Virus genome (UHGV): UHGV-0088497
Length of the DNA stretch: 27,542 nt
DNA from: a virus
Direction: 5' to 3' (one strand)
In this document: in pieces, positions 8,990 through 17,957 of the stretch
Layout of the letters: each line of letters opens with the position of its first letter
Position numbering within the stretch: position 1 is the stretch's first letter
The notes under the pieces: generated by a model
What the model was told of the DNA's origin: nothing
Seen by the model: the letters and a program-made list of their open reading frames with translations, nothing else
Database searches by the model: none
Made by a program: the position numbers and the translations under genes

Positions 8990-9023
8990 GTTAACATTAT
9001 GCCCCGTGTAGGGGCCTAATGTT
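8990..9023. terminator. long imperfect hairpin (AACATTATGCCCC-GTGTA-GGGGCCTAATGTT) between convergent Q and the minus-strand cassette; tR'-like or bidirectional terminator candidate
   Basis: Inverted repeat read directly; no strong T-run, so function is uncertain. Confidence 0.35.
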
Positions 9024-9471
9024 ACAAGTGAGGGAAAATTCTACGCAGCACTAACCAACACCTACCAAATGTGCAAAGTGAAAGGAGCAGCGAAGACAAT
9101 CCTAACAGGAGAAATAAAAAATCAATTGGTTGAGCAAAGACCTTAACATCCTCTGGTAAGAACATAGCGATCAGTGGAAACAAGCAGGCCAAAATCAGCG
9201 TCAACCCTGTTGATAGCAAGCGATTTATCAATGTTGGTAATATATTATTCCTTTTGAGGGCGTTAATGGCCCCATCTTTGTCACTATCTGCGCTACTGAA
9301 TATAGATATAGCGGCGAGAACAAACCCAAAAAGAATTCCTGAAATTGTCGAAAGCACACCTGCTGTAGTTAACACATCAGCATGTTTCATAGGCTTAAAC
9401 AGTTTTGTCGCTGCATAAGTAATCAGAACTAAGAGGACCACTTTCCAAAAAAGAGTTAGAAATTCTCTCAT
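9022..9471 (-). CDS. small 4-TM inner-membrane protein (149 aa), second gene of two-gene accessory cassette (RexB-like architecture)
   Basis: Four hydrophobic helices; strong SD (AAGGGAGGA) upstream of ATG 9471, 18 nt after the stop of the upstream gene; AT-rich sequence. Confidence 0.65.
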   Translation of the reverse strand: MREFLTLFWKVVLLVLITYAATKLFKPMKHADVLTTAGVLSTISGILFGFVLAAISIFSSADSDKDGAINALKRNNILPTLINRLLSTGLTLILACLFPLIAMFLPEDVKVFAQPIDFLFLLLGLSSLLLSLCTFGRCWLVLRRIFPHL

Positions 9472-9489
9472 TTTGTCCTCCCTTTTGCG

Positions 9490-10437
9490 TTACTGGTTTT
9501 TTTTTGCAAGCTCATACTGTGCAAGGTAATTTGCATTATCAATTTTAGCAGATATCATCGCCGTCCTGATATCAGAATCAGAAGGATAGCCGCTTTTTAC
9601 TACTATAGTTTTCGAGCCTATGAGCACTTGATCAAGTAGGCTTTTTGGCGCTGTATCTGATGGTTCTGTTACATCAATTTTCTTGATGTTTAGCCCGCCA
9701 GAGCCTTTGGGGAATAGTTCAAGCAGTTCTTTAATAGCATCAGTAACTGATGATTTAAGATAGTTGAAGCCTGCTCTTTTGGGACGAATGCGACCGCGCA
9801 TGTTAAGTCTCAGGTGTGAACCGCCCATACCAACCACCATATCAATGATGTCATTAGTAAGGTCATTCTTAATCTGATAATTAGCTTTATTGAAATTTCT
9901 TGGCGCTGCGACAGTGAGGTCAAAACTGCGAAGGATGTTCCCATCTTCAAGAAGTTCCTTCATGCTCTCGTGCTTCCAGATAGCCTCGAATGTAACATTT
10001 TTCATTTGTGTCTTGTTGTACAGAATGAAAGATAAATCATTCACTTTGGGGCCTAAATGGTTGAGAGTCATTGCTAGTAAATCTGTTTCAAAGTAGTAAA
10101 TAAAATATGTCCGTTCTACTACTGAATCTTTATCGCTAAGCGGTATCGTTCGCTCGCTTCCTGTGGTGCCATCCTCGATAAAAGGTAAGAGACAATCACG
10201 CCTCCACGAGACATACCCAAAATAACTCTGCTGCTTATCATCCTTTTCAAGAATGACAAGTTTTAAACCGCGGTTTTGGGTTTCTGCTGTCACCACTAAA
10301 GGGAATGTAACCGGAGTCGTGTTTGTCATTTGCTCGAATGCAAGTTTCGCTGTAGACAGACCGTCTTTTTTACTTCCATTTCCAGTGAAAAAGCCAACTC
10401 TTACGCGACGAGTTTTCTTCTTATCTTCTGTAGTCAT
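9490..10437 (-). CDS. soluble 315-aa protein of unknown function, first gene of two-gene accessory cassette (RexA-like position)
   Basis: Long AT-rich ORF with no catalytic motif I recognise. ORF-track start at 10443 is TTG; ATG at 10437 is more likely. Confidence 0.65.
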   Translation of the reverse strand: MTTEDKKKTRRVRVGFFTGNGSKKDGLSTAKLAFEQMTNTTPVTFPLVVTAETQNRGLKLVILEKDDKQQSYFGYVSWRRDCLLPFIEDGTTGSERTIPLSDKDSVVERTYFIYYFETDLLAMTLNHLGPKVNDLSFILYNKTQMKNVTFEAIWKHESMKELLEDGNILRSFDLTVAAPRNFNKANYQIKNDLTNDIIDMVVGMGGSHLRLNMRGRIRPKRAGFNYLKSSVTDAIKELLELFPKGSGGLNIKKIDVTEPSDTAPKSLLDQVLIGSKTIVVKSGYPSDSDIRTAMISAKIDNANYLAQYELAKKNQ

Positions 10438-10675
10438 TATCAATCCGATGAGAATTTCTGATAAACGGACGAAAAATACTATAAATAATTGAGAAGATCA
10501 TTAGCGCGGTCCGCAAAAAGTGATGTAACGTGTTAAGAGTGGTTACTTGGTCACATTGCTTAATCATCAAATTCAGCTTCTGAGTTTTGTTTTAACGATG
10601 CTTGATTGTGCGACTTATCTCTCTGAAACTTATCTTCTTTTCCTTGACTATGAATTTTCTATCTAAGGAGGTTCT

Positions 10676-11933: not shown

Positions 11934-12986
11934 ATGAAAAATACTGTAAAAATAAACAGGGTTGAGTTAATCAACGCTGATAGCCTGCATTACGTCGCCA
12001 CCCTCCCGGATAACTCTATTGATCTGATTGTTACGGATCCTCCGTACTTCAAAGTGAAGCCTAACGGCTGGGACAACCAATGGAAGGGGGACGAGGACTA
12101 CTTACGCTGGCTTGATAGCTGCCTGGCTGAGTATGCTCGCGTTCTTAAACCTGCTGGCAGCATCTACCTGTTTTGCGGTCACCGACTGGCCTCAGACATA
12201 GAGATTATGATGCGTACCCGGTTCAAAGTTTTGAATCACATCATTTGGGCAAAACCATCGGGCCGCTGGAATGGATGTAACAAAGAAAGCCTGCGTGCGT
12301 ACTTTCCATCTACGGAACGGATTTTGTTTGCTGAGCACTATCTTGGGCCGTACACAGGTAAAGAGGATGTTTACGAAAGGAAAAGCACAGAGCTAAAGCA
12401 GCACATTATGACGCCGCTGATTGATTACTTCCGTAATGCCCGTGAATCACTGGGAGTCAGCTCGAAAGAAATAGCTGAGGCAACCGGAAAGAAAAACATG
12501 GCGTCACACTGGTTTGGTGCAAGCCAATGGCAACTACCAAATGAAGTGGACTATAGAAAATTGCAGGAACTGTTCACGCGGATCGCTATCGATAAGCACA
12601 TTCAGCAGAAGCTTGAACATCCTCACCACCAGCTGGTAGCCACCTATCAGTCATTAAACCGCAAGTATTCAGAATTGCTGGAGGAATACAAAACCCTCCG
12701 GCGCTGCTTCTCTGTTTCCGCTTTTGTTCCGTATACCGACGTATGGACGCATAAGCCTGTTCAGTTTTATCCAGGCAAACATCCATGCGAAAAACCTGCC
12801 GACATGCTGAAGCAGATCATTAGCGCCAGCAGCAGACCGGGGGATATCGTTGCCGATTTCTTTATGGGCTCTGGTTCAACTGTGAAAGCTGCAATAGAAC
12901 TTGGTCGTCGGGCGATCGGCGTAGAACTGGAAACCGACAGGTTTATTCAGACCACCGAAGAGGTGGAAAAACTCAACAAAACATAA
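11934..12986 (+). CDS. beta-class DNA methyltransferase (motif IV DPPY before motif I FxGxG), N6-adenine or N4-cytosine specific, no adjacent restriction gene seen
   Basis: VTDPPYF near the N-terminus and DFFMGSGST near the C-terminus give the beta-class motif order. Confidence 0.8.
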   Translation: MKNTVKINRVELINADSLHYVATLPDNSIDLIVTDPPYFKVKPNGWDNQWKGDEDYLRWLDSCLAEYARVLKPAGSIYLFCGHRLASDIEIMMRTRFKVLNHIIWAKPSGRWNGCNKESLRAYFPSTERILFAEHYLGPYTGKEDVYERKSTELKQHIMTPLIDYFRNARESLGVSSKEIAEATGKKNMASHWFGASQWQLPNEVDYRKLQELFTRIAIDKHIQQKLEHPHHQLVATYQSLNRKYSELLEEYKTLRRCFSVSAFVPYTDVWTHKPVQFYPGKHPCEKPADMLKQIISASSRPGDIVADFFMGSGSTVKAAIELGRRAIGVELETDRFIQTTEEVEKLNKT

Positions 12987-13129: not shown

Positions 13130-13408
13130 ATGACCAGAATGAGCACCATTTACAGCAGACTTTCATATGGATCAGGAACCACGCTTGCCGGCTGCGGTGT
13201 ATCAGCGAAGGCATATGCCGAAACAGCCAAAACAGCAAAAGAGGTGTCCTGGATGTTGGCCGACAGAATTGCAGGGTTAAGCCTGAGCGACTGGGCAATT
13301 ATTGTCGGTATCGCATGCACAGTTATCACCTGTGCAGTGAACTGGTATTTCCGCTGGAAAGAACGGGAGGATCGGCGCAATGGCTATGCCACCAAAGCTG
13401 AAGAATAA
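13130..13408 (+). CDS. class II holin (pinholin, phage-21 S21-like) with dual-start motif (M-T-R-M)
   Basis: C-terminal TM2 and basic tail (WAIIVGIACTVITCAVNWYFRWKEREDRR) resemble S21; Gly/Ala-rich weakly hydrophobic TM1; GGAGG 7 nt upstream of ATG 13130 and a second ATG at 13139. Confidence 0.75.
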   Translation: MTRMSTIYSRLSYGSGTTLAGCGVSAKAYAETAKTAKEVSWMLADRIAGLSLSDWAIIVGIACTVITCAVNWYFRWKEREDRRNGYATKAEE

Positions 13409-13928
13409 ACTGAGCGCAGCGGTCGTTGGTTTGATTCTTGCGGGGGCTTCCGCGCCCGTGATTCTCGATCAGTTTCTGGATGAGAAAGAGGGTAACAGCC
13501 TGACAGCATATCGCGACGGCGGCGGAATCTGGACTATTTGCCGTGGCGCCACGATGGTTGATGGTAAGCCAGTCGTTCAGGGGATGAAACTGACGCAAGC
13601 TAAGTGTGAACAGGTCAATGCCATTGAGCGTAACAAGGCGCTGGCGTGGGTTGAGCGAAATATCAGGGTACCGCTGAGCGAACCACAGAAAGCCGGGATC
13701 GCATCTTTCTGCCCATATAACATAGGCCCCGGAAAATGTTTCCCGTCCACGTTCTATAAGCGAATGAACGCCGGCGACACAAAAGGCGCGTGTGAAGCTA
13801 TTCGCTGGTGGATTAAAGACGGTGGCCGCGATTGTCGCCTGACCAAAGGCCAGAAAAATGGCTGTTATGGGCAGGTAGAACGACGAGATCAGGAAAGCGC
13901 GCTGACGTGCTGGGGGATAGACCAGTGA
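13386..13928 (+). CDS. SAR endolysin (GH24/T4-type lysozyme with N-terminal signal-anchor-release domain, R21-like)
   Basis: N-terminus [27 protein letters not shown] (SAR-like); catalytic region [22 protein letters not shown] (E...D...T spacing of T4-lysozyme type); follows a pinholin. Confidence 0.8.
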
Positions 13929-14440
13929 GCCTGCGCTATCAGTTCATTGCTATTTCGGTGCTGGTGGCCGTCGCATTTATCGCCGGAAACGAGTGGAGTA
14001 ACCGCGGTTGGGAAAAAAAGTGGGCGGAACGTGACAGCGCGAAATCCTCGCAAACAGCGAACGCGCAGACCGCCGCCCGCATGATTGAACAAGGGCGAAT
14101 TATTGCCCGTGATGAGGCTGTAAAAGATGCACAAGCACAAGCCGCTAAATCTGCTGCGAATGCTGCTGGCCTGTCTGCCACTGTTAGCCAGCTGCGCACC
14201 GAAGCAACAAAGTTTGCCGCCCGCCTGGACGCCGCAAAGCACACCTCAGATCTTGCCGCTGCCGTCAGAAGCAAAACAGCCGGAGCCGACGCCAGAATGC
14301 TCGCCGACATGCTCGGAAGTATTGCAGAAGAAGCTCGATATTATGCTGAGCGATCTGACGAAAGCTACCGGGCTGGAATGACATGTGAGCGTGTTTACGA
14401 CTCGGTGAGACATTCGAATAACAACAGGGTTACACGATGA
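13925..14440 (+). CDS. i-spanin Rz
   Basis: GTG at 13925 overlaps the endolysin stop; N-terminal TM helix ([15 protein letters not shown]) then Ala/Gln-rich coiled-coil-like periplasmic domain. The ORF-track start at 13832 would overlap the endolysin by ~100 nt. Confidence 0.7.
14127..14381 (+). CDS. o-spanin Rz1 lipoprotein, embedded in Rz in the +1 frame
   Basis: Lipoprotein signal with lipobox LASC ([23 protein letters not shown]) followed by a Pro-rich mature region; fully inside the Rz coding region. Alternative start at ATG 14160. Confidence 0.7.
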
Positions 14441-14522
14441 ACGCCCACGTGCAGTGGCTGTGCTTGATGGTAGGATTGACGAGAAGAGGGAAAAACTTAA
14501 AGTGCTTGGGGTAACGATTACT

Positions 14523-14645
14523 TTAATTTTTACTGGTATATCGCTTTTGCAATTCAAGTTTCGCCCAGTGCATAAGGAACCCGATTATGGGAGCCGCATA
14601 AGGGGAAAGTGCGTTAAGAAAGTCAATTAGAGTTGTGTCTATCAT
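14523..14645 (-). CDS. 40-aa hydrophobic peptide with canonical SD (candidate small membrane protein / toxin-like peptide)
   Basis: Hand translation of minus strand: MIDTTLIDFLNALSPYAAPIIGFLMHWAKLELQKRYTSKN; AAGGAG (rc of 14653-14658) 7 nt upstream of the ATG (rc of 14643-14645); in the otherwise gene-free lysis-to-cos gap. Confidence 0.35.
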   Translation of the reverse strand: MIDTTLIDFLNALSPYAAPIIGFLMHWAKLELQKRYTSKN

Positions 14646-14912
14646 ATTGTATCTCCTTCAAACCAAAATTGTGGAGATGGCTGAGGATTTCAGTCATCTA
14701 TTGTAGGGCCTAATAGGTCTTCCCATTAGTGAGTCGTAAAGATTGCGACTCTTTAAAAGATTCATTACAGGAGATATGGAAATGGTTTCGCTTCGTTTGA
14801 ACAAAGCTGCGTTAATCAGCGCCACCGGCATTCACTGAGTGTCTGCGATCATTCTTTACTAAATAATTCATGGGTTTATCATGGTGACTCTTTGATAAAA
14901 GGAGTTTTGGTA

Positions 14913-15116
14913 ATGAAATTTCTCTGGGTTGTATGCATTATTTGCGGAGTTATTGGGTTTGTGCAGGGAATTATCGGGGTGTTCGGTGCTGTTAGTGCGC
15001 CTCAGCAGGCTGCTGGTGCAGCAATGGGCGTTGCATGGGCGGTAATCCCATATTGCATCTGTCGTGCTATCCAGCAGATGAGACCACAAGAAGTGGTAAT
15101 CAAAAAAGACGAATGA
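14913..15116 (+). CDS. small membrane protein (67 aa, two hydrophobic helices)
   Basis: AAAGGAG 6-7 nt upstream of ATG 14913; hydrophobic sequence; followed by an intrinsic terminator. The ORF-track start at 14892 is less likely. Confidence 0.5.
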   Translation: MKFLWVVCIICGVIGFVQGIIGVFGAVSAPQQAAGAAMGVAWAVIPYCICRAIQQMRPQEVVIKKDE

Positions 15117-15162: not shown

Positions 15163-15217
15163 AATGCCCGCCACCTATCATCGCAAGTGATAATCATTAT
15201 TAATAAATGGGTCCTCC

Positions 15218-15254
15218 TGGCAGGTTGGCCTGCCACGGGGCGGCGTGCTCGCGG
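15218..15254. other. cos site: cosN-like GGGCGGCGTGCTCGCGG (putative 12-nt cohesive end GGGCGGCGTGCT at 15238-15249) preceded by palindrome TGGCAGG-TTGG-CCTGCCA
   Basis: 10/12 match to the lambda cohesive end GGGCGGCGACCT as I recall it, followed by CGCGG as in lambda; ~110 bp upstream of the Nu1-like gene. Confidence 0.55.
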
Positions 15255-15354
15255 AAAACGGCTAGTTTTTCAGATCTAAGGTCATCATCATCATTTGCGC
15301 AGGTTATTGATCTCATTGGAGGCGATTTCGTGCAGATGTCGAATCGTTTAAAAA

Positions 15355-15855
15355 GTGTTCACCATCATGGACCAGGAAATTGCCACTTTAAAACTGAATA
15401 TCAACCAGTTGGCGGGGATCACTGGCGTACACCGTCAGACGGTCGCCGCCAGGCTGAAAAATATTGAACCGGCACCAGGTAGCAACAGCAAATTAAAGCT
15501 TTACCTGATCACCGACATTCTGACCGAACTGATGATCCCCACTGTGTCAGCCAATATCGATGACATGCTGCCATCGGACAGGCTTTCCCACTGGAAAGCG
15601 GAGAATGAGCGACTCAAGTTTGAGCAGGATACGGGGCAGCTCATTCCCGCTGATGAAGTGGCGCGCGAATTCTCATTGATGGCGAAAGCCGTCGTCATGG
15701 TACTTGAAACCCTCCCTGATGTACTTGAGCGTGACTGTGCATTAACGCCTGTTGCGGTTTCTCGCGTGCAGAGCGTTATTGATGACCTGCGCGATCAGAT
15801 GGCGGAGAGGGTGCAGGACGCTGAAGCAGAGGAGGAAGAGCCAGAGGAGGACTGA
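15355..15855 (+). CDS. terminase small subunit (lambda Nu1-like)
   Basis: N-terminal HTH region (LKLNINQLAGITGVHRQTVAARL) resembles lambda Nu1 (NKKQLADIFGASIRTIQNW); acidic C-terminus; stop overlaps the large-subunit start. Start may be GTG 15355 or ATG 15367. Confidence 0.75.
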   Translation: MFTIMDQEIATLKLNINQLAGITGVHRQTVAARLKNIEPAPGSNSKLKLYLITDILTELMIPTVSANIDDMLPSDRLSHWKAENERLKFEQDTGQLIPADEVAREFSLMAKAVVMVLETLPDVLERDCALTPVAVSRVQSVIDDLRDQMAERVQDAEAEEEEPEED

Positions 15856-17957
15856 TGGCAAAGCGGGCATCCGCCAGAGGCATCCGCCGCGATGTTTCCG
15901 GTATCTTACGTGCCCCGCGTCGAATGCAGGTGGCCGATGCGGTCAGTACTTATATGCGCGTGCCGATGGGGGCGGGTAACTCCGTTCCATGGGATCCGGA
16001 TCTGGCACCTTACGTGATTGAACCGATGAACTGCCTGGCATCGCGTGAATATGACGCGGTAGTGTTTGTTGGTCCGGCGCGAACGGGTAAAACCATTGGT
16101 CTGATTGATGGCTGGATTGTTTACAACGTTGTCTGTGATCCGGCTGATATGCTCCTGATTCAGATGACTGAGGAAAAGGCGCGCGAGCACTCCAAAAAGC
16201 GTCTTGATCGTACATTCCGTTGCAGCCCTGAAGTGAAATCCCGACTGAGCCCGCGGCGTAATGATAACAACGTATATGACCGCACGTTTCGCGCCGGGAA
16301 CTACCTGAAAATCGGCTGGCCATCGGTCAATATCATGTCCTCATCGGACTATAAATGCGTGGCACTGACCGACTATGACCGTTTCCCGGAAGACATTGAC
16401 GGGGAAGGTGACGCCTTTTCACTGGCATCAAAGCGAACAACAACGTTCATGTCGTCAGGAATGACACTGGTTGAGAGTTCGCCGGGCCGCGACATACGTG
16501 ACACAAAATGGCGCCGTAGCTCACCGCATGAAGCACCTCCTTCAACGGGGATTCTGGCGCTGTACAACCGTGGTGATCGCCGTCGCCTTTACTGGCCGTG
16601 CCCACATTGCGGTGAATATTTCCAGCCTGAAATGGACAATATGACAGGTTACCGCGATATCGCGGACCCTGTTCAGGCCAGCGAGAAAGCCTGTCTTCAA
16701 TGCCCTGCCTGTAAAGAGCACATCACTGCGGATATGAAGCGTTCGCTCAATATGAAAGGGAAGTGGCTGCGGGATGGGCAAACCATCGACAACGATGGTG
16801 TTATCACTGGGGAAGGGCGACGCTCGCGCATTGCCTCCTTCTGGATGGAAGGCCCTGCCGCCGCGTACCAGACCTGGGCGCAGCTCATCTATAAATTTCT
16901 TACCGCTGAGCAGGACTATCAGGCCACTGGCAGCGAGGAGGCACTGAAGACGGTAATCAACACCGACTTTGGGCGTCCGTATCTTCCTCGCTCCAGCATG
17001 GAACAGCGCAAAAGTGAACTGCTTGAGCAGCGTGCGGAGGTTGTACCAAAGCGCTCTGTTCCGGACGGGGTTTGTTTCCTTATGGCGACCGTCGATGTTC
17101 AGGCGGGGCGCAACCGGCGTTTTGTTGTTCAGGTTACTGGCTACGGCAGCATGGGAGAGCGCTGGCTGGTGGACCGCTACAATATCAGGCAGTCGATGCG
17201 CTATGACGCCAATGGCGAGAGCCAGCAGATTGACCCGGCAAGCTATCCGGAAGACTGGGATTTATTGCTGACCGATGTGTTTAACAAAGCCTGGCCAATG
17301 GCATCGGATCCGACTAGGTGTATGCGGCTGATGGCGATGGCCGTTGACTCCGGCGGTGAGGATGGTGTGACCGACAACGCTTATAAATTCTGGCGTAAGT
17401 GTCGTCGTGAAGGACTCGGAAAACAGATTTACCTGTTCAAAGGCGACAGTGTCCGCCGATCCAAACTTATCTCCCGAACCTTTCCTGATAATACCGGACG
17501 TTCAAGCCGACGGGCACAGGCTTCTGGTGATGTCCCGCTTTACTTGATCCAGACCGATGCTCTGAAAGACCGGGTGAACAACGCTTTGTGGCGTGATTCA
17601 CCAGGCCCTGGCTATGTGCATTTCCCTGACTGGCTCGGTAGCTGGTTTTACGATGAACTGACCTATGAGGAGCGATCGACTGATGGCAAATGGAGTAAGC
17701 CGGGACGTGGTGCAAACGAAGCATTTGACCTGCTGGTCTACGCTGATGCGCTCGCCATCCTCCACGGCTACGAGAAAATCAAATGGCCCGCTGCTCCTGA
17801 GTGGGCGAGGCGGGAAACCTGGCTGGAGAACGCGCCGCCGGAAGCTGGCGAAGCGGCATCCCAGACACCAGAACCAGTACCCACCAAAAAACGGAAGCGG
17901 AAAAAGCCCGTAACCGATGATTCTAACCCCTGGAGTACATCAGGAGGATGGTTGTGA
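15855..17957 (+). CDS. terminase large subunit (lambda gpA-like)
   Basis: 700 aa with Walker A motif (VGPARTGKT), size and position typical of gpA-type terminases; ATGA overlap with the small subunit. Confidence 0.9.
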   Translation: MAKRASARGIRRDVSGILRAPRRMQVADAVSTYMRVPMGAGNSVPWDPDLAPYVIEPMNCLASREYDAVVFVGPARTGKTIGLIDGWIVYNVVCDPADMLLIQMTEEKAREHSKKRLDRTFRCSPEVKSRLSPRRNDNNVYDRTFRAGNYLKIGWPSVNIMSSSDYKCVALTDYDRFPEDIDGEGDAFSLASKRTTTFMSSGMTLVESSPGRDIRDTKWRRSSPHEAPPSTGILALYNRGDRRRLYWPCPHCGEYFQPEMDNMTGYRDIADPVQASEKACLQCPACKEHITADMKRSLNMKGKWLRDGQTIDNDGVITGEGRRSRIASFWMEGPAAAYQTWAQLIYKFLTAEQDYQATGSEEALKTVINTDFGRPYLPRSSMEQRKSELLEQRAEVVPKRSVPDGVCFLMATVDVQAGRNRRFVVQVTGYGSMGERWLVDRYNIRQSMRYDANGESQQIDPASYPEDWDLLLTDVFNKAWPMASDPTRCMRLMAMAVDSGGEDGVTDNAYKFWRKCRREGLGKQIYLFKGDSVRRSKLISRTFPDNTGRSSRRAQASGDVPLYLIQTDALKDRVNNALWRDSPGPGYVHFPDWLGSWFYDELTYEERSTDGKWSKPGRGANEAFDLLVYADALAILHGYEKIKWPAAPEWARRETWLENAPPEAGEAASQTPEPVPTKKRKRKKPVTDDSNPWSTSGGWL

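Follow-up and report, generated by a model that had tools for sequence, protein, structure and literature searches.

Tandem promoters of virulent-phage polymerase type precede a small-peptide gene in a lambdoid prophage: a candidate anti-phage cassette

Between the lysis genes and cos of a lambdoid prophage, on a stretch of 27,542 nucleotides analysed here as a whole (the window), a 40-codon open reading frame (ORF) lies antisense to the late genes, directly downstream of two tandem promoters that match those of single-subunit RNA polymerases of virulent phages. The architecture of this cassette, which has strong in silico support, comprises the ORF with its Shine-Dalgarno (SD) sequence, selection on the reading frame, the promoter match, covariation in the leader RNA and modular spread among prophages. 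We consider it probable, judging from these features, that the cassette is a silent payload that would be fired by the polymerases of infecting Autographiviridae and whose peptide would then stop the invader. A first-pass annotation of the window had already described the ORF, and its translation, its coordinates and the AAGGAG (14658-14653) 7 nt before the ATG all proved exact; it was also right that this is a small protein gene missed by standard size filters, and an accessory element antisense to the late operon. It overlooked, however, the two promoters, and since these are virulent-phage polymerase promoters directly upstream of the ORF, a reading of the locus along type I toxin-antitoxin lines, at which it had hinted, has been revised. 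The features of the locus are collected in Table 1.

Table 1. Features of the prophage locus and the peptides of related cassettes (positions in the window)
Feature	Position	Strand	Sequence or remark
Holin	13130-13408	plus	lysis gene
Lysozyme	13380-13928	plus	lysis gene
Rz/DUF2514 spanin	stop at 14440	plus	Rz1-like frame embedded
Conserved 3' flank	14441..14522	minus	travels with the cassette; conserved across different lysis cassettes
40-aa ORF, type A payload	14523..14645	minus	MIDTTLIDFLNALSPYAAPIIGFLMHWAKLELQKRYTSKN; predicted single long alpha-helix, conserved HWAKLELxKRY tail
Shine-Dalgarno AAGGAG	14653..14658	minus	7 nt before the ATG; in initiation region GAAGGAGATACAATATG
5' RNA hairpin at predicted P2 transcript start	14675..14699	minus	AGAUGACUGAAAUCCUCAGCCAUCU; 9 pairs
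P2, Gajwadongvirus-type RNA polymerase promoter	14694..14717	minus	CCTATTAGGCCCTACAATAGATGA; predicted +1 about 14698
P1, Berlinvirus/T7-type single-subunit RNA polymerase promoter (-17..+6)	14719..14741	minus	CTTTACGACTCACTAATGGGAAG; predicted +1 = G at 14724
Inverted repeat GAGTCG-N9-CGACTC	14731..14751	minus	right arm = P1 specificity core
Gene of a predicted 67-aa membrane protein	14913-15116	plus	MKFLWVVCIICGVIGF..., own AAGGAG, matches phrog_12304 (function not assigned)
DUF1441 small-terminase-like gene	15355-15855	plus	3' of the gap
GpA-type large terminase	15855-17957	plus	packaging gene
Type B peptide			MLEIYVFKVLFYSTYLILGLLAHWAKLELTKRYERKN; found in 48 blocks
Type D peptide			MFLLEVIKFETALIELATPVIDVICHWIKLELSKRYGGS; from L158

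The lysis-to-cos gap of the first-pass annotation is real: it extends from the Rz stop to cos (~15178-15355) and is an island of low GC (38-40%, vs 53-58% in the flanks). In an alignment of nine phage backbones with various terminases (GpA or TerL/HNH) and endolysins (lysozyme or GH19), the conserved cassette module coincides with this island, and the slot is constant across unrelated lambdoid backbones, antisense and just 3' of the lysis genes. Atypical composition together with mosaic spread in unrelated prophages is what marks an accessory moron, and the cassette has both. The deposited phages closest to the window share only ~80% identity with it; when the gap was searched at near identity in E. 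coli genomes and among deposited phages, only the Rz end was recovered, and scans of genome contigs for the locus, by DNA pattern and by protein alignment, gave no match. No single-subunit polymerase is encoded by the prophage, the largest ORFs of the window being those of the terminase, a protease-capsid fusion and a product of 786 aa, so the cassette should be silent in the lysogen.

The flank 3' of the ORF is probably the remnant of the end of a convergent spanin gene; in three loci (L007, L012 and L016) a 76-aa gene of the late strand crosses it. At the other end of the gap, the claim that no convincing protein gene besides the ORF exists stood for 14441-14890, but the 67-aa membrane-protein gene begins just beyond, at 14913. 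This gene accompanies the cassette in backbones with the GpA terminase and is absent with others, and it is therefore an independent moron. It is preceded in the window by a portable inverted-repeat block, ACAGGCATTCACTGAGTGCCTGT followed by GATAAT (14824-14861, plus strand), which lies upstream of P1. The same block occurs in ST64B (NC_004313, 39253-39284), ZF40 (NC_019522, 21749-21780) and MK416022 (27310-27338), in unannotated intergenic DNA and always 40-60 nt 5' of a small accessory gene of the late strand; it looks like a promoter or operator of morons. We considered it as a further phage-polymerase promoter and rejected this, given its recurrence in temperate phages ahead of late-strand accessory genes. 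A short plus-strand ORF, MEMVSLRLNKAALISATGIH, at 14776-14838 falls inside a stretch upstream of P1 that is conserved in cassette types A-C and partly in the SfIV type.

In the locus alignment of the nine backbones, the P1 sequence forms an invariant block ~79 nt upstream of the ATG. This block matches 122 deposited phage records, mostly T7-like podophages of ~39-40 kb with several sites each, and one of the matching sites is annotated 'promoter'. We scored the window with weight matrices built from genuine promoters (17 annotated ones of T7, 15 of Berlinvirus ETEP21B, 8 of SP6, 9 of PP99 and 5 of K1-5). P1 is identical to two curated ETEP21B promoters over -13..+4 and scores 27.7 on the Berlinvirus matrix, where the phage's own promoters have a median of 31.7 and the best of 40 shuffles reached 22.4. 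The next best site in the window on this matrix scores 10.5, and apart from the cassette promoters no site in the 27.5 kb exceeds that value on any matrix. On the strict T7 matrix P1 scores 18.1, below every genuine T7 promoter (26-39), so T7 itself may use it poorly; for the same reason an assignment to T7 proper was dropped in favour of the Berlinvirus type. The control prophage DLP12 of K-12, which is without the cassette, gave nothing above 10.1 in 10 kb; as K-12 DLP12 does not carry the cassette, the classical T7 data obtained on K-12 are uninformative about it.

P2 follows P1 immediately. Its sequence matched Autographiviridae of 44-46 kb weakly, and the motif TTAGGCACTACAATAG is present in 9 copies in the genome of Pectobacterium phage PP99 (0.42 expected), all on the transcribed strand and mostly intergenic. 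PP99 is a Gajwadongvirus and encodes its own RNA polymerase. P2 is one base off the PP99 promoter consensus, which types B and C carry exactly, and its score on the PP99 matrix (27.7) falls inside the range of PP99's own promoters (24.3-33.1), the best shuffle scoring 15.5. Of the sequence features of T7-supergroup promoters, we found a 23-bp match (-17..+6) with scores in the phages' own range for P1 and P2, a conserved specificity region (-12..-5) and GGGA at +1. An inverted repeat overlapping P1 is kept in SfIV and absent in L007 and L085, and in the E. coli type of cassette its two arms have changed in concert (GAGTTGT / ACAACTC); the repeat might serve as an insulator against read-through or mask the promoter.

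The P1-P2 pair also stands upstream of the type B and type C peptides in viral contigs, whereas P2 alone precedes the type D peptide in L158 and a T7-type promoter alone precedes another hydrophobic ORF, of 38 aa, in L085. In the Shigella phage SfIV the cassette occupies, in antisense orientation, the stretch without annotation that separates the spanins from the HNH/terminase genes. Its T7-type promoter is followed by a hairpin, then by an SP6-type promoter (ATTTAGGTGACACTTTAGAAGGA) and AAGGAGG, and its ORF, again of 40 aa, is a different one. The T7-type site of SfIV scores 26.2 on the T7 matrix and 32.5 on the Berlinvirus matrix, and the SP6-type site 31.7 on the SP6 matrix, where SP6's own promoters range from 28.1 to 36.4. 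A further form is found in ~630 of 5,426 complete E. coli genomes (~12%), including O157:H7, with nothing annotated under the cassette. It combines a T7-type site with a second promoter, ATTTACTGGACACTATAGAAGGA, which is a base-perfect K1-5 promoter (35.9 on the K1-5 matrix; the K1-5 genome holds 5 sites of this type vs 0 expected), and the hairpin between its two promoters co-varies among strains. These combinations show that promoter modules and payloads have been shuffled, on a constant design of virulent-phage polymerase promoter, structured leader, strong SD and ORF of 37-42 codons. In the commonest E. coli form (L032, NZ_CP025950, and L033, NZ_CP066748; locus 1365-1658), iss, a serum-resistance gene and homologue of lambda bor, lies ~230 nt downstream in the same orientation with no evident terminator in between, and a phage polymerase might read from the cassette into it.

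The likeness of these sites to phage promoters could in principle be due to chance or be a functionless relic of recombination, the ORF being an orphan moron with an unrecognised host promoter. The marginal score of P1 on the strict T7 matrix would fit this, and our scans for host promoters were crude. However, two adjacent sites score in the range of genuine promoters with nothing else in 27.5 kb coming close, the P1 specificity core (CGACTCAC) is invariant in all cassette variants and the specificity cores hold across diverged copies, and in independent sister cassettes there are promoters of SP6 type and exact K1-5 ones. Homology of the cassette to T7-like phages is, moreover, confined to the promoter itself (~25-39 nt). 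We therefore regard coincidence or relic as highly improbable. More broadly, we cautiously favour the view, drawn from comparison of these loci, that enterobacterial temperate phages carry modular 'promoter traps', in which promoters taken over from T7-, SP6-, K1-5- and Gajwadongvirus-like virulent phages would let the invader's polymerase itself turn on tiny effector peptides, independently of host shut-off; the promoter sets would be tuned to local predators, one form being that of ~12% of complete E. coli genomes.

Downstream of the promoters, a hairpin at the predicted start of the P2 transcript is preserved across types A, B and C, with 98.4% of cells paired and compensatory double changes in 4 of its 9 pairs. 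Its covariation score is 0.471, compared with 0.187 in shuffles, none of 500 of which reached the observed value, and falls to at most 0.063 when the register is slid; in L152 the hairpin is rebuilt in a third way. This pattern of substitutions shows that the predicted transcript is constrained as RNA on the strand of the ORF. The 3' arm of the hairpin overlaps UCUCC, a candidate for pairing with the SD (GGAGA). A strong SD is kept in all variants and with every type of peptide, despite their differing sequences. We compared the initiation region with the capsid-gene leaders of T7, ETEP21B, PP99 and K1-5; the window's region resembles that of T7 gene 10 (GAAGGAGATATACATATG), and the SfIV type (AAGGAGGTTCAACATG) can be set beside the Berlinvirus capsid gene (AAGGAGATTCAACATG).

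The ORF itself is very probably translated, as judged from its sequence context and conservation. The window contains 3 instances of AAGGAG followed, after a spacer of 5-9 nt, by ATG and an ORF of 35 aa or more, vs 0.18 expected from block shuffles; the two besides this ORF both belong to accepted genes. In public assemblies, gene callers have called the identical peptide in at least 45 blocks, in each case antisense and between lysis and packaging genes; a protein search returned diverged clusters at 80-95% identity, and scans of viral contigs added a 77% variant. The first-pass annotation had proposed comparing synonymous with non-synonymous change in relatives. Among 12 distinct type-A ORF sequences the proposed frame is free of stops and has a pN/pS of 0.30, whereas stops number 14-49 in the other five frames of the same sequences, where the ratio is 0.46-1.58; variable sites are distributed over codon positions as 11/8/19. 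Most homologues came from searches at the protein level, however, and such searches are biased towards intact ORFs. The frame is also kept in more distant relatives: the type B and type D peptides share 36-47% identity with that of the window, differ from it by in-frame indels only and have the common tail HWxKLELxKRY. Copies of type B itself have a pS of 0.04, a divergence too low for an estimate of selection. The coding status of the SfIV-type and E. coli-type ORFs is weaker, because their N-terminal half is very variable and their C-terminal half overlaps Rz or Rz1 on the other strand.

These data bear on the alternative that the functional product is the RNA, either an unterminated antisense transcript running into the lysis and late genes of the prophage or a decoy, with the ORF incidental. 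A simple scan found no terminator-like site 3' of the ORF, and extended antisense transcripts might therefore play a part as well; inspection of the sequence beyond the ORF showed no ATCTGTT, the class II pause signal of T7. In favour of this alternative, the cassette invariably runs against the direction of the lysis genes, the hairpin co-varies, and the SfIV-type ORF has a variable N-terminal half and a C-terminal half that overlaps Rz. The centre of the ORF is also peculiar: 31 nt (14596-14626, minus strand; TTGACTTTCTTAACGCACTTTCCCCTTATGC) hardly vary in any of the type-A variants, synonymous sites included, which suggests a constraint at the nucleotide level beyond coding and would likewise suit a functional RNA. 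On the other hand, the low pN/pS is confined to the frame of the ORF, that frame survives at 36-47% identity through in-frame indels, and four payload sequences each come with a strong, correctly spaced SD and 37-42 codons. Moreover, the lysis genes of the prophage are silent in the lysogen, which would leave an antisense RNA without an obvious target. We thus think it unlikely that the RNA is the product, and take the peptide to be the payload.

AlphaFold2 models the peptide as one continuous helix (residues 4-39, pLDDT 87.9). The first-pass annotation had predicted a transmembrane helix; the helix stands, but its membrane character is borderline, the best 19-residue Kyte-Doolittle mean being 1.42. 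The corresponding value is 1.79 for type B and 1.79-2.29 for types B and C and the L085 peptide, which are transmembrane-like, while the type D peptide is charged and amphipathic. Since the relatives include both a plainly hydrophobic peptide (type B) and, in L158, the charged, amphipathic type D, a hydrophobic toxin is possible but insecure. No payload peptide matches a Pfam, PHROG or PADLOC family (E up to 1), and tblastn of the window peptide against phages gave chance-level matches only. The ORF lies on the strand opposite to holin, lysozyme and Rz and has no family match, which sets it apart from holins, antiholins and spanins. On these comparisons the cassette is outside all the toxin, holin and defence families with which it was compared.

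The type I interpretation, to which the first-pass annotation had pointed, would make the locus a classical toxin-antitoxin or addiction module of the Hok/Sok kind that stabilises the prophage, its likeness to phage promoters being secondary. A short peptide that is predicted to form a helix, is hydrophobic in part and ends in a basic tail is in keeping with such a toxin, as are the possible pairing of UCUCC with GGAGA, which would act against the SD, and a sigma-70-like antisense promoter at 14476-14503. This promoter, however, the sole one of its kind, varies or is missing among variants, and with no match in Rfam (E up to 10, except chance hits elsewhere) the antisense RNA that had been suggested for the gap found no support. 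Nor did a simple consensus scan find a plausible sigma-70 promoter for the ORF, so that a toxin mRNA would have no host promoter, let alone a conserved one, and the search of Pfam, PHROG and PADLOC families, known type I toxins among them, gave no match for the peptide. Such a module would also leave unexplained why two or three classes of virulent-phage promoter, all correctly oriented, are swapped between hosts. We consider an addiction module very unlikely.

Firing by an invader's polymerase would account for these features as follows. In the uninfected lysogen the gene would be silent, and during the prophage's own lytic growth the late transcript would run antisense to it. An infecting Berlinvirus-like or Gajwadongvirus-like phage would bring its polymerase, which would fire the promoters of the cassette; the polymerase of T7 is made early and is active after the host RNA polymerase has been inhibited. 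The hairpin-stabilised leader and a ribosome site of capsid-gene strength would then yield a burst of a helical peptide of 37-42 aa, and this would stop the invader, through membrane damage (abortive infection) or through binding to a protein of phage or host, so that sister lysogens would be protected. From the architecture we thus infer transcription by phage polymerases, action of the peptide and a protective outcome. The action of the peptide is the weakest step of this mechanism: membrane damage and binding of a protein target are both possible, since the window peptide is of borderline hydrophobicity and type D, a relative, is amphipathic and bears charge. As to the trigger, the best reading is that no sensor protein would be needed, the invader's polymerase directly recognising the promoter.

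The cassette might instead perform a service to the prophage unrelated to defence: its peptide could shift the timing of lysis, or its tandem promoters could be a T7-style replication origin from which prophage DNA would be copied or rescued during a lethal infection. In favour of this, the cassette adjoins the lysis genes and, being AT-rich, can be compared with the primary origin of T7, in which an AT-rich stretch comes after tandem promoters. However, the use of promoters from different phage groups suggests breadth of detection rather than an origin, L158 and L085 have one promoter each, and nothing in the cassette would serve packaging or escape. We give this explanation as little weight as that of chance likeness, and return to a defensive cassette as the preferred reading.

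In design the cassette most resembles the late units of the T7 group (phi10 with its 5' stem-loop and the gene 10 site, the design used in pET): both have a 23-bp promoter, a 5' hairpin, a ribosome site AAGGAGAT and ATG. Unlike these units, the cassette resides in a lambdoid prophage without such a polymerase, joins promoters of two phage genera and drives a 40-aa peptide rather than a virion protein. Coupling of an effector to transcriptional takeover by a lytic phage has precedents. Hok/Sok excludes T4 when host transcription stops, and systems of the ToxIN type sense shut-off; with these the cassette would share an output, in the form of a small peptide effector, that is tied to the takeover. 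They act, however, via loss of a labile antitoxin RNA, whereas the cassette would work in reverse, its payload being transcribed by the invader's polymerase; and unlike Hok/Sok it has no antitoxin or host promoter that we could find and no sequence relationship.

Promoters of a resident element that answer the transcription machinery of another phage are likewise known. The late promoters of P4 are activated by Ogr of P2, and PICI and PLE are induced by helper proteins. P4, PICI and PLE are, however, parasites that spread via their helper, whereas the cassette has no replication or packaging genes and would be directed at virulent phages. In the 1990s the Klaenhammer laboratory reportedly fused a lactococcal phage-inducible promoter to a lethal gene in an engineered suicide cassette. 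The principle is the same, a promoter specific to the infecting phage driving a lethal or inhibitory product, but those cassettes were man-made and relied on a phage activator with the host RNA polymerase, while the present one is natural, widespread and would respond to more than one phage group. The morons between Rz and cos, lambda bor and iss, share with the cassette the slot, the antisense orientation, low GC and mosaic distribution; in contrast, bor and iss are lipoprotein genes that have host promoters and are active in the lysogen, where the cassette has phage-polymerase promoters and a 40-aa peptide. The small RNA svsR, encoded by a prophage inside cI and acting through maltoporin (PMC12803456), was considered as a related locus and rejected on account of that location and mode of action. 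Full-text literature yielded no prior description of the cassette idea; subscription journals were thinly covered, so an earlier report is possible.

If the proposed mechanism holds, infection would be sensed by the invader's polymerase recognising a cis-element directly, with no sensor protein, which would be a new route of sensing. It would account for the expression of a defence gene at a stage when T7-like phages have already shut down host transcription. Hundreds of intergenic regions without annotation in E. coli, Shigella and related bacteria would acquire a meaning, and natural isolates would be expected to resist Autographiviridae in phage therapy. The cassettes would also be a natural source of polymerase-specific switches and of small effector peptides that are new.

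Elsewhere in the window, an accessory region between the Q antiterminator and the lysis genes (9022-10443, minus strand, and 11934-12986, plus strand) contains two minus-strand genes of 149 and 317 aa with no Pfam match and an N6/N4 DNA methyltransferase; this region might hold defence genes.
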